The notes beneath the pieces are model-generated. The model was not told where the DNA came from, did not search any database, and was given only the letters and a program-made list of their open reading frames with translations. From assembly GCF_024223415.1 (NCBI RefSeq), contig NZ_CP100502.1: a stretch of 64,000 nt of DNA; one strand, given 5' to 3'. The position numbers were made by a program, and so were the translations under genes. This stretch comes from Escherichia coli (GTDB lineage Bacteria; Pseudomonadota; Gammaproteobacteria; Enterobacterales; Enterobacteriaceae). Of the stretch, positions 43,974-57,735 are shown piece by piece. How positions within the stretch are numbered: position 1 is the stretch's first letter; each line of letters begins with the position of its first letter.

Positions 43974-44501
43974 ATGAGTGCACGTGGTATCAACAAGGTC
44001 ATCCTCGTCGGGCGTCTGGGCAATGATCCGGAGGTCCGTTACATCCCCAACGGTGGCGCAGTGGCAAACCTGCAGGTGGCCACGTCAGAAAGCTGGCGCG
44101 ACAAACAGACGGGGGAGATGCGGGAGCAGACGGAATGGCACCGTGTTGTGCTGTTCGGCAAGCTCGCGGAAGTGGCAGGTGAATATCTGCGCAAGGGCGC
44201 GCAGGTCTACATCGAGGGGCAACTCCGTACCCGTAGCTGGGACGACAACGGCATCACCCGCTACATCACTGAAATTCTTGTTAAGACCACGGGCACCATG
44301 CAGATGCTGGGGAGTGCACCACAGCAGAACGCTCAGGCGCAACCGAAGCCTCAGCAGAATGGGCAGCCACAGAGTGCTGACGCGACGAAAAAAGGTGGCG
44401 CGAAAACGAAAGGCCGTGGACGTAAGGCCGCGCAGCCCGAGCCTCAGCCGCAAACGCCGGAGGGGGAGGATTACGGGTTTTCAGACGACATCCCGTTCTG
44501 A
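43974..44501 (+). CDS. ssb: Plasmid single-stranded DNA-binding protein
   Basis: 175 aa; OB-fold N-terminus, Gln/Pro-rich linker, acidic tail DDIPF. Confidence 0.95.
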
Positions 44502-44516
44502 TCGGGCTGACTGTGA

Positions 44517-44792
<276 letters not shown>

Positions 44793-44850
44793 GAGAGGTG
44801 CCGGACGCGCGAACGTCCGGCAGGACATAAGCAATTATAAGGGGATGATT

Positions 44851-46809
44851 ATGCCTGTAACGAAGTGTGAACCAGAAACCACCCGCAAAGCAAGCCGTAA
44901 ATCTGCAAAAACGCAGGAAACTGCCCTGTCTGCCCTGCTGGCGCAGACGGAGGAAGTGAGCGTGCCGCTGGCCTCACTGATTAAATCACCGCTGAATGTG
45001 CGCACGGTGCCGTATTCTGTGGAGTCCGTCAGCGAACTGGCTGGGTCCATTAAGGGCGTTGGCCTGTTGCAGAATCTGGTCGTGCATACCCTGCCTGGTG
45101 ACCGTTACGGTGTCGCCGCAGGTGGTCGCCGACTGGCTGCACTCAACATGCTGGCAGAGCGCAACATCCTTCCGGCTGACTGGCCTGTCCGTGTGAAGGT
45201 CATCCCGCAGGAACTGGCGACTGCCGCATCGATGACCGAGAACGGTCATCGTCGGGATATGCACCCTGCCGAACAGATTGCCGGATTCCGCGCATTGGCG
45301 CAGGAAGGCAAAACACCTGCACAGACTGGCGACCTGCTGGGCTATTCACCCCGCCACGTTCAGCGAATGCTGAAACTGGCAGACCTTGCGCCTGTCATCC
45401 TCGATGCGCTGGCAGAGGACCGCATCACCACCGAGCACTGTCAGGCGCTGGCGCTGGAGAGCGACACCGCGCGTCAGGTGCAGGTGTTTGAAGCGGCCTG
45501 CCAGTCAGGATGGGGCGGTAAACCGGATGTGCGGGTTATCCGCAACCTGATTACGGAAAGTGAAGTGGCAGTGAAGGACAACACTAAATTCCGCTTTGTG
45601 GGGGCTGATGCCTTCTCGCCAGACGAATTGCGCACCGATTTGTTCAGCGATGACGGGGACGGTTATGTCGACCGCGTGGCGCTCGATGCCGCCCTGCTGG
45701 AAAAACTCCAGGCTGTTGCAGAGTTCCTTCGGGAAGCCGAAGGCTGGGAATGGTGCGCCGGGCGCATGGAGCCTGTCGGTGAGTGCCGTGAGGATGCCGG
45801 AACATACCGCTGTCTGCCGGAGCCGGAAGCGGTGCTGACGGAGGCGGAAGACGAACGCCTGAACGAACTGATGACGCGTTACGACGCGCTGGAAAACCAG
45901 TGTGAGGAATCCGACCTGCTGGAAGCAGAAATGAAGCTGATGCGCTGCATGGCGAAGGTCAGAGCGTGGACGCCGGAGATACGTGCCGGAAGCGGTGTGG
46001 TGGTGTCCTGGCGTTATGGCAACGTATGTGTCCAGCGTGGTGTGCAGTTGCGCAGTGAAGATGACGCGACTGACGACGCTGACCGCACGGAACAGGTGCA
46101 GGAGAAAGCGTCAGTGGAGGAAATCAGCCTGCCGTTGCTGACGAAAATGTCCTCAGAGCGCACGCTGGCAGTCCAGGCGGCACTCATGCAGCAGCCGGAC
46201 AAATCTCTGGCACTGCTGGCATGGACGCTCTGCCTGAATGTGTTTGGCAGCGGGGCGTACAGTAAACCAGCACAAATCAGCCTGGAATGTGAACATTATT
46301 CGCTGACCAGCGATGCGCCATCGGGGAAGGAAGGTGCCGCATTCATGGCGCTGATGGCAGAAAAATCCCGTCTTGCAGCCCTGCTGCCGGAGGGATGGTC
46401 ACGGGACATGACGACATTCCTGTCCCTCAGTCAGGAGGTGCTGTTATCCCTGCTCAGTTTCTGCACCGCATGCAGCCTTAACGGTGTCCAGACCCGTGAG
46501 TGTGGTCACACGTCACGCAGTCCGCTTGACTCGCTGGAAAGCGCTATCGGATTCCACATGCGCGACTGGTGGCAGCCGACAAAAGCAAACTTCTTCGGAC
46601 ACCTGAAAAAGCCGCAGATTATCGCAGCCCTGAATGAGGCCGGACTGTCCGGTGCCGCACGGGACGCGGAGAAGATGAAGAAAGGTGATGCGGCTGAACA
46701 TGCAGAGCACCATATGAAAGACAACCGCTGGGTTCCAGGCTGGATGTGTGCACCACATCCACAGACAGATGCCACTGAACGCACCGATAACCTGGCTGAT
46801 GCCGCCTGA
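44851..46809 (+). CDS. ParB-like nuclease-domain protein of the leading region
   Basis: 652 aa from MPVTKCEP; N-terminal ParB/Srx-like region. Confidence 0.75.
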   Translation: MPVTKCEPETTRKASRKSAKTQETALSALLAQTEEVSVPLASLIKSPLNVRTVPYSVESVSELAGSIKGVGLLQNLVVHTLPGDRYGVAAGGRRLAALNMLAERNILPADWPVRVKVIPQELATAASMTENGHRRDMHPAEQIAGFRALAQEGKTPAQTGDLLGYSPRHVQRMLKLADLAPVILDALAEDRITTEHCQALALESDTARQVQVFEAACQSGWGGKPDVRVIRNLITESEVAVKDNTKFRFVGADAFSPDELRTDLFSDDGDGYVDRVALDAALLEKLQAVAEFLREAEGWEWCAGRMEPVGECREDAGTYRCLPEPEAVLTEAEDERLNELMTRYDALENQCEESDLLEAEMKLMRCMAKVRAWTPEIRAGSGVVVSWRYGNVCVQRGVQLRSEDDATDDADRTEQVQEKASVEEISLPLLTKMSSERTLAVQAALMQQPDKSLALLAWTLCLNVFGSGAYSKPAQISLECEHYSLTSDAPSGKEGAAFMALMAEKSRLAALLPEGWSRDMTTFLSLSQEVLLSLLSFCTACSLNGVQTRECGHTSRSPLDSLESAIGFHMRDWWQPTKANFFGHLKKPQIIAALNEAGLSGAARDAEKMKKGDAAEHAEHHMKDNRWVPGWMCAPHPQTDATERTDNLADAA

Positions 46810-46863
46810 TGAACAACCACACCGCCCCGCCGGAGACGGGGCGGCAGCAAGGGAGATACCGTG

Positions 46864-47298
46864 ATGAAAACTGAACTGACCCTGAATGCCCTGCAGTCCA
46901 TGAACGCACAGGAATATGAAGATATCCGTGCTGCGGGAAGCGATATGCGCCGTAATCTCACTCACGAGGTGATGCGTGAAGTGGACGCACCGGCTAACTG
47001 GATGATGAATGGCGAGTATGGCAGTGAGTTCGGGGGCTTTTTCCCCGTCCAGGTTCGTTTCACGCCAGCCCACGAACGTTTCCACCTGGCATTATGTTCG
47101 CCGGGAGACGTCTCTCAGCTCTGGATGCTGGTTCTGGTGAATTGTGGTGGACAGCCTTTCGCCGTCGTTCAGGTGCAACATATCTTCACGCCTGTCGCTA
47201 TCAGTCACACGCTGGCGCTTGCCGCGACACTTGATGCGCAGGGGTACAGTGTTAACGACATCATCCATATCCTGATGGCAGAAGGAGGTCAGGCATGA
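46864..47298 (+). CDS. psiB: Plasmid SOS inhibition protein PsiB
   Basis: 144 aa [32 protein letters not shown]. Confidence 0.9.
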
Positions 47299-48014
47299 GC
47301 GCACGTTCACGGGCACTGATCCCCCTCAGCGCAGAGCAACAGGCCGCCATGCAGGCTGTGGCTGTCACCGAACAACGTCGTCGTCAGGGACGCACACTTT
47401 CAGCATGGCCTTATGCCAGCGCTTTCTTTCGCTGCCTGAATGGCAGTCGCCGGATTTCGCTGACCGATCTCCGCTTTTTTGCTCCTGCGCTGACGAAGGA
47501 GGAATTTCATGGCAACCGTCTCCTGTGGCTGGCTGCCGTGGATAAACTGATTGAAAGTTTTGGTGAAGTCTGTGTTCTTCCCCTGCCATCCGATGCGGGG
47601 CATCGTCTGTTCCCGTCCGTTCCTTTTCGTGAAGGTGAGCGGCGTCGTCAGAAAACCACGCTGACAGAGCAGAAATACAGCCGCCAGCGGGAACGTGAGG
47701 CAGAACGACGGGAACTGGAATACCAGACATGTTTTGCTCAGGCGCAGATTGACCTTGCGTTTCATACTCCCGCCACGGTCGGAAGCTGGTTGTCCCGCTG
47801 GTCTGGTGTTGTTGAGGAGCATGATCTGGAAACGATTTTCTGGGGGTGGTGCGGGCGTTTTCCATCACTGTCATCATTTGACCGGTTTTTCTGGCAGGAG
47901 GAACCACTCTGGCGGCTGATTTTTGAAGCCGGTGAGGCCGGTCGTGGTGCACCGGTACAGGTACGTGCACTTGAGCAGTGGATGATCCCGAACAAGCTGG
48001 AGAACGCAATATGA
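47295..48014 (+). CDS. psiA: PsiA
   Basis: 239-aa ORF overlapping psiB stop. Confidence 0.85.
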
Positions 48015-48607
48015 TGAAATCAGACGAACAATATCAGGTTCCCGTGTGGATGCGACCTCTGTTGCCGTTGCTCTGCAATACCGGTGGTAATGATCCGGAG
48101 GAACTGCTGAATGATACAGAAACCACCGCCAGTGCGAATATTGTCCGTTATGTACTGATAGTTGCAGTGCGGTCGCAGATTGATCTGCTGCAGCTACTGT
48201 ACAGGAAAGGACTGTTGCGCACAGAGATACCAGGTGGCTTTTCACCGGAAGAAGCGCAGGAACTCCTGGATAATCTGGTGCGCAGCCATATCAGCAAGGC
48301 GTTGTCGGGTGAGCGAATGGCAGCCCGTGACAGAAATGCCGATCTGACCTGGATTCGCCAGCAACTGGTCGATGCCGCCTGGTTTGTCCGTGCCACACTG
48401 GAAGCGCATGGGATGGGCGTCGGAAATGAGAGTCCCTCTGCTCCGCCGGAGACAATGCCGGACATACAGACACGGGAACTGGTTATGTTGATCAAGCGAC
48501 TGGCATCATCGCTGAAAGCGGTGAAACCCGACAGTAGCGTGGTGCGTGAAGCGCAGGACTGGCTGTGCGACAGAAAACTTGTGGATATCACAGATATTCT
48601 CCGGTGA
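48011..48607 (+). CDS. Hypothetical leading-region protein
   Basis: 198-aa ORF overlapping psiA stop. Confidence 0.5.
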   Translation: MMKSDEQYQVPVWMRPLLPLLCNTGGNDPEELLNDTETTASANIVRYVLIVAVRSQIDLLQLLYRKGLLRTEIPGGFSPEEAQELLDNLVRSHISKALSGERMAARDRNADLTWIRQQLVDAAWFVRATLEAHGMGVGNESPSAPPETMPDIQTRELVMLIKRLASSLKAVKPDSSVVREAQDWLCDRKLVDITDILR

Positions 48608-48710
48608 ACCAGACATGTATATTTTACGCAGGGACACGCCGATCATGATCGTTTCATATCAGGGGTGGTCTGGAGGTCATGCGGCGTGTCCTCTGCACTC
48701 GCCGGAATAA

Positions 48711-49040
48711 GGAAGTCGCCGGCGGCTCCGCTTTTACCCGGCCATGCGGGGCATGGCCTTGTGGGTTTTCAGCTCTGTGGCCTCAGCGTCGTGTGCGGGC
48801 TGTGCCGTGCCTCCATCTTAGCCGGGCTGGCAGGGATGCAAGGGTACGCTTCGCCGCTGCGGTCACCCGGTCCCTCCTTCCCGTCTGCCGTGATTTTCCG
48901 GTCGTTCACCCGCTCAGATTTCGCGGTCTCACCCTCCAACTCCCGCCAGCCGTGTGCGTCAGGCTGCGGCTTCCCTTGCGCCCTGTGCATCCCCGCCTTA
49001 TCGCCCGGCTTTTATGGAGGCACGGCACCGCCCGGTGTCG
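48711..49040. repeat. Leading-region repeat, family B copy 2 (Frpo/ssi-like)
   Basis: Nearly identical to 41727-42058; directly upstream of ardA. Confidence 0.7.
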
Positions 49041-49069
49041 CAGAACATGTGACTATGGAGGATTCGGGA

Positions 49070-49570
49070 ATGTCTGTTGTTGCACCTGCTGTATACGTTG
49101 GAACCTGGCACAAATACAACTGTGGAAGCATCGCTGGCCGCTGGTTTGACCTGGCCACGTTTGATGATGAACGCGACTTTTTCGCCGCCTGCCGCTCTCT
49201 TCACCAGGATGAAGCCGATCCTGAACTGATGTTTCAGGATTATGAGGGATTCCCGGGGAATATGGCCTCAGAATGCCATATCAACTGGGCCTATGTTGAA
49301 GGCTTCCGCCAGGCGCGGGATGAAGGCTGCGAAGAGGCTTATCGTCTCTGGGTGGATGATACCGGTGAGACGGATTTTGACACCTTCCGCGATGCCTGGT
49401 GGGGCGAGGCTGACAGTGAGGAGGCTTTTGCGGTTGAGTTCGCCAGTGATACCGGCCTGCTGGCTGACGTGCCGGAGACGGTGGCGCTCTATTTTGACTA
49501 TGAGGCGTATGCGCGGGATTTATTCCTGGACTCCTTCACCTTTATTGACGGTCATGTGTTCCGTCGGTGA
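49070..49570 (+). CDS. ardA: Antirestriction protein ArdA (DNA mimic)
   Basis: 166-aa highly acidic protein [28 protein letters not shown]. Confidence 0.9.
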
Positions 49571-49738
49571 TTTACTCCCCCGCTCCGGCGGGGGTATGGC
49601 CTGCCAGGCCGCCGGAAAACCCTGGCAGGCTTACGCCTGCCTGAAATGCAGGAGGGCCGCGCCTGCGGCGCTGCCCTTCCTGCCCGTCATGGTGTGAGGC
49701 ATTTTTCTGTTATGTCGTTTCTGTTGTTCTGATTTCCG

Positions 49739-50255
49739 GAGGCGGGGACACCTTCGGCTCCCGGCTGCCTGGCGGCATCCGGTCGTCAGGCCCGACTCCG
49801 ACAGGCAGCTGCTGGCGCACCCGCCAGTCTCCGCCGAACCCGCTGGCGCGGTTTCGGGCTGCCGCTACGGTCCGATGTCTGAAAAACCAGGCTTGCAGCG
49901 ACCGTTCCGGTCGCGCCGCCCCTGTCGCGCCGGAAACGGCGCTCCCTGCACACCTTACGGTGTGTAAGGCAACTGCGCCTGATGGCGCAGTCAACCCTTC
50001 CGCCGCCACCCCTGCGGCCTGTTTCCCGCTGTGGACTTTCCGGGGGCTGGAGTAACCACATCCCGTTTCAGCAGTCCAGGGGAAGATATACCGTCCACAA
50101 AATTTTTAGCCATAAACCCGGCAAAAAATTTTGCGTCCGCCCCCGGACAGCTGCCCCGTGACGTGGTGACGGACGCCCCATCGGAAAGGTCCACTGCGGG
50201 GAGAAACCCCGAAGAAGTGGACGGCAGAAGGGGCTTTCGCCCCTCCGGGGAGCAA
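49739..50255. repeat. Leading-region repeat, family A copy 2 (Frpo/ssi-like)
   Basis: Highly similar to 43405-43920. Confidence 0.7.
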
Positions 50256-50298
50256 CCGGTCGGCCCGGCGACCTGATTCAGCAGAAGGAGATGTTTTC

Positions 50299-50733
50299 AT
50301 GACAGTCAGCAGCACGATTTCCGTTTTTTGCCGCGACGGGGTGTTCCGTACCGTTTACTGCCACCTGCACGGGGAGCCGACCTGGAACGGTCGCATCCTG
50401 CATACTCACTATGCCACCGGTCAGCAGGCCGAAGCCCTGGTTGAACACGGTGATATCCGTTGCCTCGGTCCCCGTTGTGACAAACCCGCCGGGCATACGC
50501 TTCAGAACCCGGTGGACGGTGTGACGGCTTATTACGGACGTGACAGTGGTTTCCGGATGGACAGTGAGGCGCGTGAGTACCGTTCTTTCAGGGAGGCTAT
50601 TGCCACTGAAAGCACTGAAGAGGTGCGCTTCCATTATGTGTTCATCGACGGCTACTGGAAGGTGATGTACCGCACGCCGGAAGGCTGGAAGATGAAAGCG
50701 CTCGCGCTGGCACTGCGTCGCTGTCCGAAATGA
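50299..50733 (+). CDS. Hypothetical protein directly downstream of a family A repeat
   Basis: 144-aa ORF with SD AGGAGA. Confidence 0.55.
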   Translation: MTVSSTISVFCRDGVFRTVYCHLHGEPTWNGRILHTHYATGQQAEALVEHGDIRCLGPRCDKPAGHTLQNPVDGVTAYYGRDSGFRMDSEAREYRSFREAIATESTEEVRFHYVFIDGYWKVMYRTPEGWKMKALALALRRCPK

Positions 50734-50824
50734 AAAAAAGGCAGGGCGATAAACCCTGCCTCTCTCCGCCGTTACTTCCCCGCCAGGAAGAGCGGCAGTC
50801 ATCAACAACATAAGGAGTAATATT

Positions 50825-51091
50825 GTGAGACCATCAATTATCTTCGCAACCGCCGAGTATGTAAAGCGTCTGCGTGAAGAGTGCCTGCGGGAGAATAAAC
50901 CCCTGCACCGCCATACCCGCTTCAGACGTCAGGAGCTGGCACAGGATGAGATTAACCCGGACGTCCTGGCGATGAGCGGCCATATCGCCAGACGCTGCAG
51001 TGAGCAGAAGCGGGTGCGTATCCCCGCTATGAAAGTCAGCGAATGGGGCCACCTGCTCCGCGCGCTTGAAATTGAGCGGGTCTGCCACTGA
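50825..51091 (+). CDS. Hypothetical small basic protein
   Basis: 88-aa ORF, GTG start, SD AAGGAG. Confidence 0.45.
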   Translation: MRPSIIFATAEYVKRLREECLRENKPLHRHTRFRRQELAQDEINPDVLAMSGHIARRCSEQKRVRIPAMKVSEWGHLLRALEIERVCH

Positions 51092-51155
51092 TTAACCCTT
51101 GCCGTCTGCCTGTGCAGGCGGCAGGATACGTTCAGACATCTCACCAGGAGGAACC

Positions 51156-52097
51156 GTGAGTAAGAAGAAAAACACCACAACGCCCACGCCGCATGATGCC
51201 GCGTTCCGGTCGTTCCTGGCGAATCCCGACGTCGCCAGAGATTTTCTGGAACTGCATCTTCCTGCGGAGTACCGGCAGTTGTGCGACCTGTCCACGCTGA
51301 AGCTGGAACCCGCCACCTTTGTTGAGCCGGACCTGCATCAGTACGCCAGCGATATCCTCTGGAGCGTGAAAACCACCGGGGGTGAAGATGGTTATGTTTA
51401 TACGCTCATCGAGCACCAGAGCACCGAAAATCTGTACATGCCTTTTCGCATGTTACGCTACAGTGTGGCGGCGATGCAGAGACATCTGGAGCAGCACAAA
51501 ACGTTGCCACTGGTCATTCCGGTGCTGTTCTATCACGGTGAGCGCAGCCCGTACCCGTACAGCATGAACTGGCTGGACTGTTTTGAGAATCCGGCGCTTG
51601 CGGCTAAAATATACACAAAGCCGTTTCCGCTGGTTGATATCACTGTCGTTGATGACAATGAAATCATGAACCATCGCCGGATGGCCGCACTGACGCTGCT
51701 GATGAAGCATATCCGTCAGCGGGATATGCTGATGTGTCTGGACAACCTGGTCAGAGCACTGCAGGACATCCAGGATGAAGAGCAGATTACAGTTCTTTTC
51801 AACTATCTGCTTAATGGCAGCGAACATGTAACGGTTGAATTTTTGCAGACGCTGGCGCAGCGACTGCCGCAGCACGAGGACAGCATTATGACACTGGCAG
51901 AACGTCTTAAGCAGGAAGGTATCCAGCAAGGTATCCAGCAGGGTATCCAGCAGGGTATCCAGCAGGGAGTTCAGCAGGGGGCGCTTCAAAAAGCACGGGA
52001 AATCGCCCGGGAGCTCCGGAACGCGGGAATGCCGGCAGCACAAATCTGTCAGCTGACCGGACTTTCTGAAGCTGAACTGAAGAACATCACTCACTGA
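51156..52097 (+). CDS. Rpn-family (YhgA-like) recombination-promoting nuclease
   Basis: 313 aa from GTG; PD-(D/E)xK-type N-terminal region, C-terminal QQGIQQG repeat. Confidence 0.75.
   Translation: MSKKKNTTTPTPHDAAFRSFLANPDVARDFLELHLPAEYRQLCDLSTLKLEPATFVEPDLHQYASDILWSVKTTGGEDGYVYTLIEHQSTENLYMPFRMLRYSVAAMQRHLEQHKTLPLVIPVLFYHGERSPYPYSMNWLDCFENPALAAKIYTKPFPLVDITVVDDNEIMNHRRMAALTLLMKHIRQRDMLMCLDNLVRALQDIQDEEQITVLFNYLLNGSEHVTVEFLQTLAQRLPQHEDSIMTLAERLKQEGIQQGIQQGIQQGIQQGVQQGALQKAREIARELRNAGMPAAQICQLTGLSEAELKNITH
51918..51977 (+). repeat. Five tandem 12-bp repeats (GGTATCCAGCAG-like) encoding (QQGI)n within the Rpn gene
   Basis: Read directly. Confidence 0.85.
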
Positions 52098-52158
52098 TGA
52101 GAGCCAAAAGGCCCGGCAAAATGCCGGGCCTTTTGCCAGCAGGAGCAGAGAAAACAGT

Positions 52159-52329
52159 ATGACGATTGCAGAACGTCTTATACAGAAAGGTTTTGAAAAA
52201 GGTGCTCTTGAAGTGGCGCGGGAAATAGCCTGCCGGCTTCGGGATATGGGCTGGACGCCGGAACGGATTCAGGAGGCCACGGGACTTTCCGGTGAAGAAC
52301 TGAAAAAACTGTTTCCTGATGAGCAGTAG
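52159..52329 (+). CDS. Small ORF resembling the C-terminal domain of the adjacent Rpn protein (RpnS-like)
   Basis: 56-aa MTIAERLIQKGFEKGALEVAREIACRLRDMGWTPERIQEATGLSGEELKKLFPDEQ; parallels Rpn C-terminus; SD AGGAGCAGAG. Confidence 0.5.
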   Translation: MTIAERLIQKGFEKGALEVAREIACRLRDMGWTPERIQEATGLSGEELKKLFPDEQ

Positions 52330-52359
52330 CCTGGCATTCTGCCAGGCTGTGAACCACGC

Positions 52360-52611
52360 TCACACATCCTCTGCCGTTTCCCCCAGTTCATTTTCCAGAC
52401 GCCTGATGATATCTGCCTTGCGCATCCCCTGCATGTGAGGCAGCAGGTCACGGACTGAAAGTGCCTGGGTGGTCCTCCAGACGGTGACATCCACCTGTTC
52501 CGCATTTTCCCAGGCGTGCCATGTTCTCTGTGTCACGCCAAATTCTCTGGCCGCTTTTTCGCGTGACCAGAGCATGCTTTTTCGCCAGATTCGCAGTTCC
52601 CAGCCGGTCAT
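52360..52611 (-). CDS. Small helix-turn-helix regulator (XRE-like)
   Basis: 83-aa ORF with HTH-like segment. Confidence 0.5.
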   Translation of the reverse strand: MTGWELRIWRKSMLWSREKAAREFGVTQRTWHAWENAEQVDVTVWRTTQALSVRDLLPHMQGMRKADIIRRLENELGETAEDV

Positions 52612-52814
52612 AAAACACCTTTGAAAAAGTGAAAAAACTTCACTTTATTTTATCACCATAACCACCAAATCAGCGCGAAAAATAAGTGTGAAAAAGTGAA
52701 GGAATTTCACTTTTTTTGATTGTAGGTGTCGTGCTGTTTTCTCTGTTTTCACCTGTGCGGGAGTGGTGTGCCAGTGACCACCACATGCCATTGTTGCGCC
52801 GTCGTTTTTCTTCA

Positions 52815-53150
52815 GTCGCGCCGGATGCGGCGCTCCCTGCACACCTTACGGTGTGTAAGGCCACTGCGCCTGATGGCGCAGCTGTCTCTGCCTGTCTGCC
52901 GCCGCACTGCGGCCTGTTCTCCGCAGATGGACTTTCCGGGGGTACATACACGACCACATCCCGTTTCAGTCGTCCAGGGGAGAGATGTACCAGCCACAAA
53001 ACTTTTTGCCGCAGGCGTCAAAAACTTTTGCGTCTGCCCCCGGACAACTGCCCCGTGACGTGGTGAGCGTCCCCCGTCGGAAAGGTCCACTGCGGGGAAA
53101 TCCCCGAAGACCCGGACGGCAGAAGGAGCTTCGCTCCTCCGGGAAATGAC
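52815..53150. repeat. Leading-region repeat, family A copy 3 (partial)
   Basis: Aligns with the distal two-thirds of the family A repeats. Confidence 0.65.
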
Positions 53151-53187
53151 CTGGCTGACCCGGCAGTCGTGACGATGAGGAGACAAT

Positions 53188-54039
53188 GTGATGAATCAGA
53201 CTTTACCCACTGCTGACCTGAATACTGCCGGCACGACAGATGTTATTCCGTCTGTGGCCATCGACCGCATCATCGCGCAGCGTAACGAAGGTATTGCACT
53301 GTTCATGCAGGCGATGGAATGCCTGGCGACAGCGCGCAGGATTCTGCTTGATGCGTCAGGTGATATTTTTCTTTACGGTTTTGAAGACTGCGTGACCGAC
53401 TCCGTTCGGTGCATGGATAAACCGGAAGAAGCGAAAAGGAATATCACCCGTCTTGCCGACCGGAAAATCTGGGACCGCCTGATGACGGATACGGGGATGT
53501 ACACCTTCATGAGTTCATGTCAGCGTGATGAGTGGAACAGCCAGCTGATGAGCGACACCTGTCCTGAAATCACCCTGGACAATGTACTGGCAACTTTTCG
53601 CCATCTGAATGCCAGTAAGATGCAGACATTTGAACAGGGACTGATTGATGTCTACCGGAAATTGTCATGGGATTACAGAACCAATAATCCCTGCCGTCTG
53701 GGCAAGAGAATCATTATTGAAAACCTGCTGTACCGCTGGAGTAACGGGCGTGTTACGCTGGACTGCAGCGGACGGGAGGCACTGGATGACCTGGTACGTC
53801 CGTTTTATCTGCTGGAGGGGCGCAACGTTCCTGACTTCCGGAGCAGCATCGGGGCGCAGTACGGTGAATTTATCGGGAACGGCGACAATGTCGGTAAGCT
53901 GTTAGAAGGGGAATATTTTACGGTGCGTGGCTACCAGAAAGGGACCGTACACATTGTCTTTAAGCGTCCTGACCTTGTTGAAAAACTGAATGATATTATT
54001 GCACGGCATTATCCTGGTTCATTGCCGCCACGAGTCTGA
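53188..54039 (+). CDS. Hypothetical protein directly downstream of the partial family A repeat
   Basis: 283-aa ORF with SD GAGGAG. Confidence 0.55.
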   Translation: MMNQTLPTADLNTAGTTDVIPSVAIDRIIAQRNEGIALFMQAMECLATARRILLDASGDIFLYGFEDCVTDSVRCMDKPEEAKRNITRLADRKIWDRLMTDTGMYTFMSSCQRDEWNSQLMSDTCPEITLDNVLATFRHLNASKMQTFEQGLIDVYRKLSWDYRTNNPCRLGKRIIIENLLYRWSNGRVTLDCSGREALDDLVRPFYLLEGRNVPDFRSSIGAQYGEFIGNGDNVGKLLEGEYFTVRGYQKGTVHIVFKRPDLVEKLNDIIARHYPGSLPPRV

Positions 54040-54123
54040 TTAAACAGAAAAGCCCTGGTATTTATGCCGGGGCTTTTTTTCTGTAATCATCATAATATCA
54101 GAACATGATGTGACATTGTCACA

Positions 54124-54465
54124 TCAATTGTTGTTCATATCGATGCCATCTTTCCTGGCTGAATCTGTCTTTTTAGATGCTGTTTTAGAGGAAGAACGGC
54201 GGGATGGCTTTTTCGATTCTGCTTCCCGAATAATGTCACGAAGTGCCTTCTCTCCTACTTCATACCCTGCATTTTTGAGCGTATCACGAACATCTGCCAG
54301 TGTATAACCCTTTGTCCTTACCAGAACAATAATGTCATCACGAATGGCATCAAGAAAATCACGCAATGTTTTCCGTTGAGCGGTGAGATCTGGCAATTCC
54401 GATAAAGCAGCTTTTGCCAGCTGGATGTCATCATCTGAGTAAAATTTTTTAGAAGCCATTGGCAC
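54124..54465 (-). CDS. Hypothetical protein transcribed divergently from nikA next to oriT
   Basis: 113-aa ORF with Lys/Ser-rich C-terminal tail. Confidence 0.45.
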   Translation of the reverse strand: MPMASKKFYSDDDIQLAKAALSELPDLTAQRKTLRDFLDAIRDDIIVLVRTKGYTLADVRDTLKNAGYEVGEKALRDIIREAESKKPSRRSSSKTASKKTDSARKDGIDMNNN

Positions 54466-54559
54466 TTTCTCTCCGTTTCATGTTGAAGTCTGATTTTATC
54501 ATCAAAAACTGACTCCTGGCAGGGCTGCGCCCTGCCTCTGCCGTCTGCATAAGACTATG

Positions 54560-54692
54560 ATGCACAAAAATAACAGGCTATAATGGCCTGAAAAACGGGA
54601 CAGGATGTGCAATTGTAATACCGTCACACGCGACGCTATTACAATTGCCATCTGGTCAGGGCTTCGCCCCGACACCCCGTAAGGAGCCTGAA
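54560..54692. other. Putative origin of transfer (oriT)
   Basis: Immediately upstream of nikA; inverted repeat GCAATTGTAATAC ... TATTACAATTGC around 54609-54658. Confidence 0.5.
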
Positions 54693-55025
54693 GTGAGTGA
54701 TAGTGCGGTAAGAAAGAAAAGTGAGGTACGGCAAAAGACAGTTGTCAGGACACTCAGATTCTCTCCTGTTGAGGATGAAACCATCAGGAAAAAAGCTGAA
54801 GATTCCGGACTTACTGTATCTGCTTACATCCGAAATGCAGCACTGAATAAGCGAATTAACTCCCGTACAGATGATGCTTTTCTGAAGGAGTTAATGAGAC
54901 TGGGAAGGATGCAGAAGCATCTGTTTGTTCAGGGAAAAAGAACCGGTGACAAGGAATACGCAGAAGTGCTTGTTGCCATAACCGAACTTACAAATACATT
55001 GCGTAAACAGTTAATGGAAGGTTGA
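54693..55025 (+). CDS. nikA: Relaxosome accessory protein NikA (ribbon-helix-helix)
   Basis: 110 aa from GTG, MSDSAVRKKSEVRQKTVVRTLRFSPVEDETIRKK. Confidence 0.85.
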   Translation: MSDSAVRKKSEVRQKTVVRTLRFSPVEDETIRKKAEDSGLTVSAYIRNAALNKRINSRTDDAFLKELMRLGRMQKHLFVQGKRTGDKEYAEVLVAITELTNTLRKQLMEG

Positions 55026-55035
55026 GGATTCTCCG

Positions 55036-57735
55036 GTGAATGCAGTCATTCCGAAAAAGAGAAGGGACGGCAAGTCTTCGTTCGAAGACCTGGTATCCTA
55101 CGTCTCTGTCCGGGATGACATGACCGATGAGGAACTGGATTTATCTTCTTCTTCGCAGGCTGAACAACCGCACCGAAGCCGTTTCAGTCGCCTTGTTGAT
55201 TATGCGACACGTCTTCGAAATGAGTCATTCGTGGCGCTGGTTGATGTCATGAAGGACGGCTGCGAATGGGTCAACTTTTATGGTGTCACCTGCTTTCATA
55301 ACTGTACTTCTCTTGAAACTGCCGCTGCAGATATGGAGTACATTGCCCGGCAGGCACACTATGCAAAAGATGACACTGATCCTGTTTTTCACTACATCCT
55401 TTCCTGGCAGTCACATGAAAGCCCGCGTCCGGAACAGATTTATGACAGTGTACGTCATACGCTGAAATCACTCGGCCTTGCCGACCATCAGTATGTCTCT
55501 GCCGTGCATACTGATACAGATAATCTGCACGTCCATGTGGCTGTTAACCGGGTACACCCTGAAACGGGTTATCTGAACCGGTTATCCTGGAGTCAGGAAA
55601 AACTCAGTCGTGCCTGCCGTGAGCTTGAACTGAAGCATGGTTTTGCTCCGGATAACGGTTGCTGGGTCCATGCACCGGGAAATCGTATCGTTCGCAAAAC
55701 CGCCGTTGAACGTGATCGCCAGAACGCGTGGACACGCGGGAAAAAACAAACTTTTCGCGAGTATGTCGCGCAGACAGCGGTCGCTGGTTTACGCAGTGAA
55801 CCTGTAAATGACTGGTTATCCCTGCATCGTCGTCTTGCGGAAGATGGTCTGTACCTGTCTCAGATGGACGGAAAATTTCTGGTGATGGATGGCTGGGATC
55901 GCAACAGGGAAGGTGTACAGCTTGACTCGTTTGGTCCCTCCTGGTGTGCAGAAAAACTCATGAAAAAAATGGGTGACTACACGCCAGTACCAAAAGACAT
56001 TTTCAGCCAGGTGGAAGCACCAGGACGCTATAATCCGGACTTCATTGCCGCTGATGTTCGCCCGGAAAAAATCGCTGAAACAGAAAGTCTGCAGCAGTAT
56101 GCCTGTCGTCATCTTGGAGAACGTCTGCCGGAAATGGCACGGGAAGGACGGCTGGAAAACTGCCAGGCTATTCACCGCACACTGGCTGAAGCGGGATTAT
56201 GGATGCGTGTTCAGCATGGTCACCTGGTTATCTGTGACGGTTATGATCATAACCAGACTCCCGTTCGTGCTGACAGCGTATGGTCGCTGCTGACGCTCGA
56301 CAATGTGAATCAACTCGATGGTGGCTGGCAGCCTGTACCAACAGATATTTTCCGCCAGGTTACGCCAACAGAACGCTTCCGTGGTCGTCGTATGGAGAGC
56401 TGTCCTGCGACCGATAAAGAATGGCACCGTATGCGTACAGGCACGGGGCCGCAGGGGGCTATCAAACGCGAACTGTTTTCTGACAAAGAAAGTCTGTGGG
56501 GATACAGCATCAGCCATTGTAGCCCTCAGATTGAAGAAATGATCACACAGGGTGAGTTTACCTGGCAGCGTTGTCATGAGCTGTTTGCACAACAGGGACT
56601 GATGCTACAGAAACAACATCACGGGCTTGTTGTCGTTGATGCCTTTAATCATGAGCAAACGCCGGTGAAGGCCAGCAGCATTCATCCTGATCTGACACTG
56701 GGGCGTGCAGAGCCACAGGCCGGACCTTTTGTGAGTGCCCCAGCAGATTTGTTTGACAGGGTGCAACCTGAAAGTCGCTATAACCCGGAGCTGGCTGTCA
56801 GTGACAGGTACGGGGTCAGCAGTAAACGTGACCCAATGCTGCGCCGGCAGCGACGTGAAGCCAGAGCTGAGGCCCGTGCTGACCTGCGTGCCCGCTATCT
56901 GGCATGGCGTGAACAATGGCGTAAACCAGATCTGCGTTATGGGGAACGTTGTCGGGAAATTCATCAGGCATGCCGTCTGCGGAAGTCACACATTCGTGCG
57001 CAGTACGATGATCCGGCATTACGTAAGCTGCATTATCACATTGCAGAAGTTCAGCGAATGCAGGCATTGATCAGGCTGAAAGAAGACATCAGGGATGAGC
57101 GACAGAAACTTATTGCTGATGGGAAATGGTATCCACCCTCTTACCGTCAGTGGGTCGAAATTCAGGCTGCTCAGGGAGACAGGGCTGCTGTATCGCAGCT
57201 GAGAGGCTGGGATTATCGCGATCGCCGTAAAGACAGGTCACGCACAACGACGACAGACCGCTGTGTCGTGCTTTGTGAACCGGGCGGAACGCCGGTATAC
57301 GGTAATACCGGTGATCTCGAGGCCCGTCTGCAGAAGAACGGGAGTGTTCGTTTCCGTGACCGTCGGACGGGAGAGTTTGTCTGTACGGATTATGGTGACA
57401 GGGTTGTTTTCCGTAATCACCATGACCGCAATGCGCTGGCAGATAAACTGGATTTGATTGCACCGGTATTATTCGGGCGTGATCCACGCATGGGTTTTGA
57501 ACCAGAAGGAAACGACAAACAATTTAACCAGGTCTTTGCTGAAATGGTTGCCTGGCATAATGTGACAGGCCGTACCGGTCACGAAGACTACAGGATTACG
57601 CGACCGGACGTGGATCATCACCGTGAAGGAAGTGAACGCTACTACCGCGATTATATCGCGGCGAACAGCAACAATGACGCATCACTGCCTCCGCCGGAGC
57701 AGGATAAACGCTGGGAACCGCCTTCTCCAGGTTAA
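55036..57735 (+). CDS. nikB: Relaxase NikB
   Basis: 899-aa ORF with relaxase histidine motif HVHVAVNRVHPETG. Confidence 0.9.
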   Translation: MNAVIPKKRRDGKSSFEDLVSYVSVRDDMTDEELDLSSSSQAEQPHRSRFSRLVDYATRLRNESFVALVDVMKDGCEWVNFYGVTCFHNCTSLETAAADMEYIARQAHYAKDDTDPVFHYILSWQSHESPRPEQIYDSVRHTLKSLGLADHQYVSAVHTDTDNLHVHVAVNRVHPETGYLNRLSWSQEKLSRACRELELKHGFAPDNGCWVHAPGNRIVRKTAVERDRQNAWTRGKKQTFREYVAQTAVAGLRSEPVNDWLSLHRRLAEDGLYLSQMDGKFLVMDGWDRNREGVQLDSFGPSWCAEKLMKKMGDYTPVPKDIFSQVEAPGRYNPDFIAADVRPEKIAETESLQQYACRHLGERLPEMAREGRLENCQAIHRTLAEAGLWMRVQHGHLVICDGYDHNQTPVRADSVWSLLTLDNVNQLDGGWQPVPTDIFRQVTPTERFRGRRMESCPATDKEWHRMRTGTGPQGAIKRELFSDKESLWGYSISHCSPQIEEMITQGEFTWQRCHELFAQQGLMLQKQHHGLVVVDAFNHEQTPVKASSIHPDLTLGRAEPQAGPFVSAPADLFDRVQPESRYNPELAVSDRYGVSSKRDPMLRRQRREARAEARADLRARYLAWREQWRKPDLRYGERCREIHQACRLRKSHIRAQYDDPALRKLHYHIAEVQRMQALIRLKEDIRDERQKLIADGKWYPPSYRQWVEIQAAQGDRAAVSQLRGWDYRDRRKDRSRTTTTDRCVVLCEPGGTPVYGNTGDLEARLQKNGSVRFRDRRTGEFVCTDYGDRVVFRNHHDRNALADKLDLIAPVLFGRDPRMGFEPEGNDKQFNQVFAEMVAWHNVTGRTGHEDYRITRPDVDHHREGSERYYRDYIAANSNNDASLPPPEQDKRWEPPSPG

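Follow-up and report, generated by a model that had tools for sequence, protein, structure and literature searches.

Which nuclease is the partner of a small antitoxin-like gene that stands directly behind a nuclease gene already containing an antitoxin of its own? The question is raised by a locus in a 64,000-nucleotide stretch of Escherichia coli DNA (contig NZ_CP100502.1 of RefSeq assembly GCF_024223415.1), referred to here at its full length as the window. At position 51,156 an rpn gene begins, and it is followed on the same strand by an open reading frame (ORF) of 56 amino acids that ends at position 52,329. The large gene is rpnP2, and the small ORF belongs, judged by its sequence, to the RpnS antitoxin family, but its module type, here called F, differs from the type, here called Q, that is carried inside this allele of rpnP2. 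We favor, with a probability of roughly 0.55, the reading that the small ORF is a selected heterotypic RpnS module whose natural partner is an F-type Rpn C-terminus and not the adjacent nuclease with its five-repeat Q module (Q5), and that it takes part as donor or recipient in the swapping of modules.

Rpn nucleases and their antitoxins

The rpn genes encode a toxic nuclease, RpnL, and its antitoxin, RpnS, the latter being made from an internal start in the same gene (PMC10400941). RpnS is a three-helix bundle that dimerizes through a long first helix with hypervariable four-residue repeats (PMC10400941). The antitoxin RpnAS does not block RpnBL, this non-cognate pair being inactive, and one extra repeat in RpnCS abolishes inhibition unless RpnCL has the same extra repeat (PMC10400941), a point on which the accompanying commentary agrees. 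The initial annotation of this DNA had mentioned an antitoxin-like role of Rpn C-terminal domains as a proposal; the published work goes beyond that and demonstrates it experimentally. Separate downstream rpnS genes, termed "rpnSs", occur on chromosomes and plasmids, among them ypaA (rpnESs) and rpnCSs, and the YpaA protein has been detected by tagging (PMC10400941). Such copies can be lost via deletion or fusion, they also vary in their number of four-residue repeats, and RpnCSs and RpnESs cluster with the RpnS of their own upstream genes (PMC10400941).

The large gene is rpnP2

The large ORF had been described as an Rpn-like nuclease that ends in a tandem repeat and a C-terminal segment, and this description holds in both parts. 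It matches Pfam Transposase_31 (PF04754), the YhgA-like N-terminal PD-(D/E)XK domain, over residues 11-209 (E 4.3e-78), and the NCBIfam model TIGR01784 Rpn with 178 bits (cut-off 52.1). In a by-eye comparison with the active-site mutant gBlock AO730, the catalytic residues appear to be kept, namely D in HDAA, D in ASDIL, and E and Q in IEHQ. PADLOC has no Rpn system model, and its sole match, to a 'putative invertase' model, covers the C-terminal third of Rpn. The parts of the gene are the following.

51156..52097, plus strand: rpnP2, long product RpnP2L, a PD-(D/E)XK nuclease toxin of 313 amino acids (GTG start at 51156, TGA stop at 52095-52097)
51876..51890, plus strand: internal ribosome-binding site (RBS) GAGGA at 51876-51880 and internal ATG at 51888-51890, the bases altered in the published RpnP2L* gBlock AO714
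51888..52097, plus strand: rpnP2S, the intragenic antitoxin module of 69 amino acids, Q type, from the published internal start codon
51918..51979, plus strand: 12-nt tandem repeat encoding (GIQQ)4 and GVQQ in helix 1 (Tandem Repeats Finder: period 12, 5.2 copies, 92% matches)

Within rpn, some 280 nt ahead of the internal start, there is a promoter-like site at 51583-51610, TTGAGA-16 nt-TAAAAT (10/12); by analogy with the internal promoters that Zhong et al. 2023 (PMC10400941) drew for rpn genes of K-12, it could serve an RpnS transcript.

The gene rpnP2 is a plasmid gene of E. coli ECOR13 that was tested for toxicity and phage defense (Zhong et al. 2023 PNAS, PMC10400941). RpnP2L is toxic without its internal antitoxin RpnP2S, and the RpnP2L/RpnP2S pair protects against T-even phages (PMC10400941). 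The synthetic DNA and primers used for ECOR13 RpnP2, as given in Dataset S2 of the preprint by Zhong et al., were mapped on the window. The part of gBlock AO591 shown there agrees with 50856-51254 in all 399 of 399 nt, with 0 mismatches, and primers AO733 and AO739 place the GTG start at 51156. Against 51527-51917, gBlock AO714 has three scattered substitutions and six designed changes (51876-78, 51883, 51888, 51890), which are the sole clustered differences; the designed changes abolish the GAGGA RBS and the ATG, and the start of RpnP2S is the ATG at 51888. That RpnP2S is translated from this internal start comes from PMC10400941. Primers AO671, AO672, AO705, AO739, and AO740 also map to the locus, in the repeat region, the C-terminus, and the flanks. 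The large gene of the window is rpnP2, and from these gBlock and primer matches it follows that the window carries the gene for which toxicity in the absence of the internal antitoxin, and protection against T-even phages, were demonstrated. The ECOR13 allele differs from that of the window at a few silent or flanking positions, and the ORF downstream of it in ECOR13 is a GFDE repeat allele.

The same mapping bears on what the published constructs contained. These took in '101 bp downstream' of the rpn stop (PMC10400941), and their reverse primer AO619/AO738 corresponds to 52177-52198 of the window, cutting the small ORF after codon 13, in codon 14. The small ORF was therefore truncated in every published RpnP2 construct. 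The RpnP2LS constructs with the cut small ORF were still non-toxic and still protected against phages (PMC10400941). The deletion made in ECOR13 kept the hairpin downstream of rpn and the small ORF (primer AO740).

The small ORF is a separately encoded RpnS-family gene

The small ORF lies where the initial annotation had placed it, 61 nt from the rpn stop to its own start.

52159..52329, plus strand: free-standing RpnS-family gene, F type, 56 amino acids with one GF(E/K)x unit (ATG at 52159, TAG stop; RefSeq hypothetical protein WP_000150325.1)

In a pairwise BLASTP alignment with the Rpn C-terminus, the small ORF shows 50% identity over 36 residues (E 1e-7, as a single comparison), and 8 of the first 11 residues are identical (MTIAERLIQKG versus MTLAERLKQEG). 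In DNA, the two modules share 74% identity over their first 54 nt, which form a direct-repeat family (D3). The small ORF also matches positions 225-273 of the 273 in TIGR01784 (E 2.9e-7) and the C-terminal end of phrog_3300 (E 1.9e-5), and near-identical database proteins have precomputed matches to Pfam PF27070 HTH_Rpn_C. A Pfam scan with a library lacking PF27070 returned noise only for the small ORF, in the form of weak helix-turn-helix (HTH) matches. Since the profile matches, the BLASTP alignment, and the PF27070 assignment agree, the resemblance is not due to chance. The start MTIAERL aligns with MTLAERL of RpnP2S, with MTIAERL of RpnES and YpaA, and with residue 1 of the chain in 7TH0, the crystal structure of RpnA-S. 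On sequence grounds, the small ORF is thus placed as a separately encoded RpnS-family protein with an HTH_Rpn_C domain, of the published rpnSs class.

An AlphaFold2 (AF2) model of moderate confidence (mean predicted local distance difference test score, pLDDT, 75.8) has helices at residues 3-29, 34-41, and 45-51, so the small ORF is predicted to be a three-helix bundle with a long first helix. The best PDB match of the model is 7TH0 (TM-scores 0.61/0.71, root-mean-square deviation 2.1 Å over 48 columns, 44% identity), which likewise has three helices and a long first helix and matches in sequence over the full length (E 0.04); the Foldseek E-value of the structural match is weak (0.7), the protein being small, and the model has the pLDDT given above. 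Structural matches ranking after 7TH0 are HTH domains (DeoR, Hin and resolvase, Fis, TrpR-like). These, together with the weak Pfam HTH matches, would fit a DNA-binding regulator that controls the rpn operon or its leading-region neighbors through its HTH-like bundle, independently of RpnL binding; a relation of RpnS to HTH motifs was also found with HHpred, and many antitoxins autoregulate (PMC10400941). Against this stands the weakness of all the matches (E > 0.7), as would be seen for any small helical bundle. An operator-like repeat was not found near the rpn promoter region, and DNA binding by RpnS is nowhere reported in PMC10400941. A regulator of this kind is very unlikely.

The F module is of another type and modules are exchanged

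The small ORF had been called a free-standing copy of the nuclease's own C-terminal domain. For comparison, 40 related loci were sampled, mostly via protein variants of the small ORF, and every module beginning with MT[ILV]AE[RQ]L was extracted. Three module types were distinguished.

Type Q: repeat unit (GIQQ)n, after the repeats ...ALQKAREIARELRNAGMP.AQICQLTGLSEAELKNITH
Type R: repeat unit (GRQE/GRME)n, after the repeats ...ALEKALAIACQLQKMGMTPEQIKQATGLS..ELKKI.H
Type F: repeat unit (GFKE)n, after the repeats ...ALEVAREIACRLRDMGW.PERIQEATGLSGEELKKLFPDEQ

The window has a Q module with five repeats inside rpn and a free-standing F module with one repeat. By manual count over aligned non-repeat residues, F and Q are about 53% identical, F and R about 67%, and Q and R 63%; whole-module alignment gives 51% for F versus Q and 64% for F versus R. 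Among the sampled modules, F does not cluster with the RpnS of its own upstream gene. The small ORF therefore stands as a detached relative of the Rpn C-terminus, as had been claimed, but it is of another module type, closer to the C-terminus of the alternative rpn allele than to that of its neighbor: by its sequence it is a paralogue of the Rpn C-terminal module and not a copy of this gene's own C-terminus.

The arrangement of the modules differs among plasmids. An RpnL with a Q module followed by a free F module is found in the window, in ColIb-P9, and in loci L001 and L003-L007, and an RpnL with an R module followed by F makes up the majority of the sampled loci. Three loci carry an RpnL with a Q module followed by free R and F modules in tandem, each preceded by the same hairpin spacer (L010, 2781-3195; L012; L025, 1312-1705). 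The F module of L025 has zero repeat units and 52 amino acids. The free R modules have, repeat number aside, the same amino acid sequence as the internal modules of sister plasmids. In one IncI-gamma/K1 plasmid (NZ_CP018946.1; L026, 1720-2643), an R-type linker and an F module with three repeats form the C-terminus of Rpn itself (WP_063117900.1, from pEC224_2), and there is no free small ORF downstream. In another locus (L035, 2300-3231), the N-terminal half of rpn is deleted, with a DUF1281 fragment in its place, while the R module and a six-repeat F module are intact. Between the Q and R alleles of RpnL, identity is 95-100% from nt 1 to nt 540 and 28-70% beyond, the whole C-terminal third being exchanged. 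The natural arrays and the Rpn-F fusion, compared as sequences, show that the modules are exchanged. We propose that F, through a conserved 5' box of about 45 nt and a conserved spacer, would give or receive sequence when unequal recombination swaps or stacks C-terminal modules; one unequal crossover in the 45-nt 5' box between Q-F and R-F loci could then have yielded both the Q-R-F arrays and the R-linker-F fusion as reciprocal products.

In PLSDB, an rpnP2-type N-terminus (at least 95% identity) occurs in 2,006 plasmids and the F core in 2,025, mostly as full-length DNA and in four genera, with an internal R-type core in 1,537 and an internal Q-type core in 418. F is therefore nearly universal beside rpnP2 and almost always free-standing, and the internal module alternates, the window's Q type being the minority internal type. 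Across plasmids, the repeat number is 3 or 5 in Q modules and ranges from 0 to 5 in R modules. The internal module and the F module of a locus differ in repeat number in almost all loci sampled (5/1, 3/4, 2/3, 4/1, 0/6); only R1/F1 loci coincide. A search of 1.8 billion representatives returned mostly small proteins and spurious IcmE/DotG-like repeat matches, clustering at 50% merging the RpnL alleles.

The nearest known relatives of this arrangement, ypaA (rpnESs) of K-12 and rpnCSs, are likewise small same-strand genes directly downstream of rpn that consist of an RpnS module from a MTIAERL start. In K-12, ypaA repeats the RBS-plus-RpnS unit of rpnE almost exactly in tandem, 12 nt after the rpnE stop and with no hairpin. 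F differs from ypaA and rpnCSs in being heterotypic (identity about 53% with the resident module, about 67% with that of the alternative allele), in standing behind a terminator-like hairpin, and in its occurrence, in some loci, in arrays of two free modules. The K-12 ypaA (L002, 7817-8002) is listed as a pseudogene in RefSeq despite the detected protein (PMC10400941), and the small ORF is similarly under-annotated as hypothetical. Two loci of other plasmid Rpn families, at about 70% identity, gave negative results: at the Klebsiella locus there is no RpnS-like ORF downstream on the plus strand, and in Salmonella IncF none is annotated downstream. Plasmid Rpn genes thus do not share the arrangement in general. 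A nuclease with an internal antitoxin in the same gene and a class of separate downstream RpnS genes are already known; specific to this locus are the heterotypic copy, its near-universal presence beside rpnP2 in plasmids of the IncI complex, the multi-module arrays, and the position in the leading region.

The spacer and the start of the small ORF

The spacer between rpn and the small ORF contains three features.

52105..52135, plus strand: terminator-like hairpin with a 14-bp stem CAAAAGGCCCGGCA/TGCCGGGCCTTTTG and a run of four T (RNA fold of 52085-52175, 91 nt: -33.1 kcal/mol, z -4.5)
52141..52145, plus strand: AGGAG motif resembling a Shine-Dalgarno (SD) sequence, 13 nt before the ATG of the small ORF
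52097..52162, plus strand: mini-ORF of 21 codons running through the hairpin, its ATG overlapping the rpn stop (TGATG) and its TGA overlapping the ATG of the small ORF (ATGA)

In related loci, every RpnS module is followed by a stop, a hairpin GCCCGGCAAAATGCCGGGC with a T-run of 4-7, and then CAGCAGGAGCAGAG...ATG. The block CAGCAGGAGCAGAG is kept in most spacers, with the variants CAGCAGGGGCAGAG and CAGCAGGAGCAGGG. A consensus terminator scan missed the inter-module hairpin, the T-run of this allele being four; folding revealed it.

Through its overlaps, the mini-ORF could link translation of the small ORF to that of rpn, or its own translation could open the terminator hairpin. The frame of its ATG relative to the small ORF is 0, 1, or 2 among plasmids, and one spacer has no ATG, so such coupling may operate in many alleles but is not conserved. 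Long annotated forms of the small ORF (69-93 amino acids), which start at the stop-overlapping ATG or inside the hairpin, were rejected as the product on the same grounds of variable frame (0/1/2) and one missing ATG. The conserved start is therefore the ATG of MT[IL]AERL, and the variable frame explains the inconsistent database annotations of 56, 69, and 77-93 amino acids, an in-frame ATG giving 77-93.

Selection on the small ORF

These signals also bear on whether the small ORF is a gene. It could be a silent cassette or a decaying remnant of an old tandem duplication, one that is not translated, persists as the terminal unit of an array, and serves as a recombination substrate only. The terminator-like hairpin ahead of it, the sub-optimal SD spacing, and the zero promoter matches would agree with that view, as would the pseudogene status of K-12 ypaA in RefSeq, the fusions and arrays that show recombination at module boundaries, and a few disrupted alleles (P0122, P0126, and P0135). 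The pattern of substitution speaks against it. Among 10 distinct core alleles of F there are at least 15 synonymous and at least 12 non-synonymous changes, for 37.7 and 118.3 sites, respectively, a ratio of about 0.25 (binomial p 4.5e-4). Pairwise pN/pS values are 0-0.4, and the window and L025 differ by 8 synonymous and 0 non-synonymous changes. The free-standing homologues measure 52, 56, 60, 64, 68, 72, or 76 amino acids, corresponding to 0-6 units of GFKE type, in steps of four residues only. The small ORF is intact in all sampled loci (n=42), its DNA is present in some 2,000 plasmids of four genera, its start codon and the block upstream are conserved, and YpaA of K-12 is a detected protein (PMC10400941). 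By its substitution pattern, F is thus under purifying selection, and an untranslated relic is highly improbable.

The partner of the F module

If F is a selected gene, its partner has to be sought. The initial annotation had suggested a trans-acting regulator or decoy of the adjacent gene, which is doubtful under the published matching rule given the repeat numbers of one and five and the non-toxicity of constructs in which the ORF is cut. For these same two reasons, F is probably not a required antitoxin of the adjacent Q5 nuclease. On this view, F would be an auxiliary antitoxin that binds RpnP2L in trans despite its different helix 1, adding dosage or buffering a burst of RpnL in recipients at the first transcription of the leading region. 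Its position on the same strand 61 nt downstream and its near-universal co-occurrence with rpnP2 would suit such a role, and F is the same whichever internal module is present, which fits binding to the invariant N-terminal 187 residues. The TGATG and ATGA overlaps could couple translation, and the K-12 analogue YpaA is made as a protein (PMC10400941). On the other side, RpnAS is inert on RpnBL and one extra repeat abolishes inhibition (PMC10400941), F has one repeat against five and only about 53% identity, the RpnP2LS constructs without intact F are non-toxic, and the frame of the mini-ORF on which coupling would depend is not conserved. We consider an auxiliary antitoxin unlikely.

The reading that we prefer, a selected heterotypic module with a partner elsewhere, would work as follows. 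Transcription reading through the weak hairpin terminator would reach F, whose translation would begin at its own start codon. The product would be a three-helix bundle that pairs, like RpnA-S, via its long first helix. Since a helix can pair only with a matching one, the partner expected in nature would be an F-type Rpn C-terminal domain of equal repeat number, such as that in the fusion protein WP_063117900.1.

Several points weigh against this reading. Chief among them is the constancy of F beside an alternating internal module, which could equally mean that F acts on a conserved part of RpnL. The repeat-matching rule, demonstrated with RpnC only, may fail between modules of different type, or where F contacts the invariant N-terminal domain. 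RpnL proteins that end in an F-type module look rare, at one of 60 spread-sampled plasmids; the prevalence of the Rpn-F fusion rests on this single case, and a chimeric query of linker plus F was uninformative since clustering at 90% merges the RpnL alleles. On the side of expression, the small ORF stands behind a terminator-like hairpin with its SD-like motif 13 nt from the ATG, and a promoter scan gave no sigma-70-like promoter between rpn and the small ORF. Lastly, the selection test draws on 27 changes in all, counted as a lower bound by parsimony, and the loci were retrieved via F-type proteins, which biases the sample toward intact F.

The locus in the leading region of an IncI1 plasmid

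The plasmid type of the window is IncI1, and the locus lies in its leading region. IncI-type plasmids are a common conjugative type in Escherichia, Salmonella, and Shigella. Many E. coli plasmids, among them the IncI1 prototype ColIb-P9 (NC_002122.1), match the 1.7-kb region with 100% identity. The annotated order in the identical plasmids is a parB-like gene, psiB, psiA, ardA, two hypothetical genes, rpn, the small ORF, a convergent HTH gene, a DUF4942 gene, and nikA/nikB. The genes psiB-psiA-ardA-...-rpn-F-... are all on the plus strand and point to nikA. From gene order and strand, the locus is therefore placed about 3 kb from the origin of transfer (oriT), in the leading region. The rpn-F locus occupies a leading-region gene position on the strand transcribed toward oriT; early expression is predicted from this position. 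The surrounding features are these.

49880..50200, minus strand: candidate Frpo/ssi-like single-strand promoter upstream of the orf144-orf88-rpn-F string, with direct-repeat families D1 and D2
52329..52347, no strand assigned: hairpin GCCTGGCA-TTC-TGCCAGGC, read from the sequence, between the convergent small ORF and HTH gene
52360-52842, minus strand: HTH gene of 83 amino acids (phrog_6962) and a 65-residue ORF, convergent, the sole minus-strand genes in this leading-region stretch

On folding, the minus strand of 49880-50200 forms a long single-stranded DNA hairpin (dG -102.7 kcal/mol, z -10). A related copy of about 300 nt at 52770-53100 also forms a long single-stranded DNA hairpin (z -7.9), its direct repeats being 87-96% identical to those of 49880-50200. 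The two elements stand directly upstream of orf144 (50299) and of the DUF4942 gene (53188), respectively. Given the leading-region context, they are likely Frpo/ssi-type single-strand promoters, a kind of element described for IncI1 leading regions. A scan of 44000-56000 against Rfam gave zero matches.

Upstream of the HTH gene are two related palindromes AAAAAGTGAA...TTCACTTT (52612-52653 and 52679-52720). The gene is called in nearly all sampled loci, is shortened to 71 amino acids in some, and is uncalled in L038. The DUF4942 protein (53188-54039), whose gene adjoins oriT, matches the phage DNA-methyltransferase family phrog_6263 (E 1e-18) and phrog_38825, and by this resemblance the gene may be a leading-region anti-restriction gene of methyltransferase-like character.

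Plasmid leading regions have an excess of orphan antitoxins (Samuel and Burstein 2024, PMC11541004). F resembles such genes in being a small antitoxin-family gene on a strand suited to early single-strand transcription, with Frpo-like hairpins flanking it, and differs from them in that a toxin gene of the cognate family adjoins it, F being an orphan in module type only. The passages of leading-region papers, PMC11541004 included, make no mention of the small ORF at this locus. A tentative and rather doubtful extension of the heterotypic-module reading is that the free F and R modules are leading-region orphan antitoxins, expressed early, that would neutralize the matching-module Rpn nucleases of resident or competing plasmids of the IncI complex and would also serve as cassettes for re-keying their own nuclease. 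It would fit the identity of free R modules with the internal R modules of sister plasmids, the occurrence of an RpnL with an F C-terminus in IncI-gamma/K1, and the enrichment of orphan antitoxins in leading regions.

Implications for Rpn biology

Rpn is a recently recognized toxin-antitoxin and antiphage system in which the antitoxin is encoded inside the toxin gene, and rpnP2 is the plasmid representative used to demonstrate phage defense and is among the first genes to enter the recipient on IncI-type plasmids. The gene downstream of it is conserved, evolves under purifying selection, is heterotypic, and was not carried intact by the published constructs. If it were only a spare copy, the finding would be ordinary. 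Whether a mismatched RpnS acts on its neighbor, on the nucleases of other plasmids, or as a recombination cassette bears on what drives the hypervariability of the repeats, a question flagged by the authors of the Rpn work and in the accompanying commentary. If the free modules are indeed orphan antitoxins of plasmid leading regions, the variation of the four-residue repeats would be driven by an arms race of plasmid against plasmid and not by phages alone.

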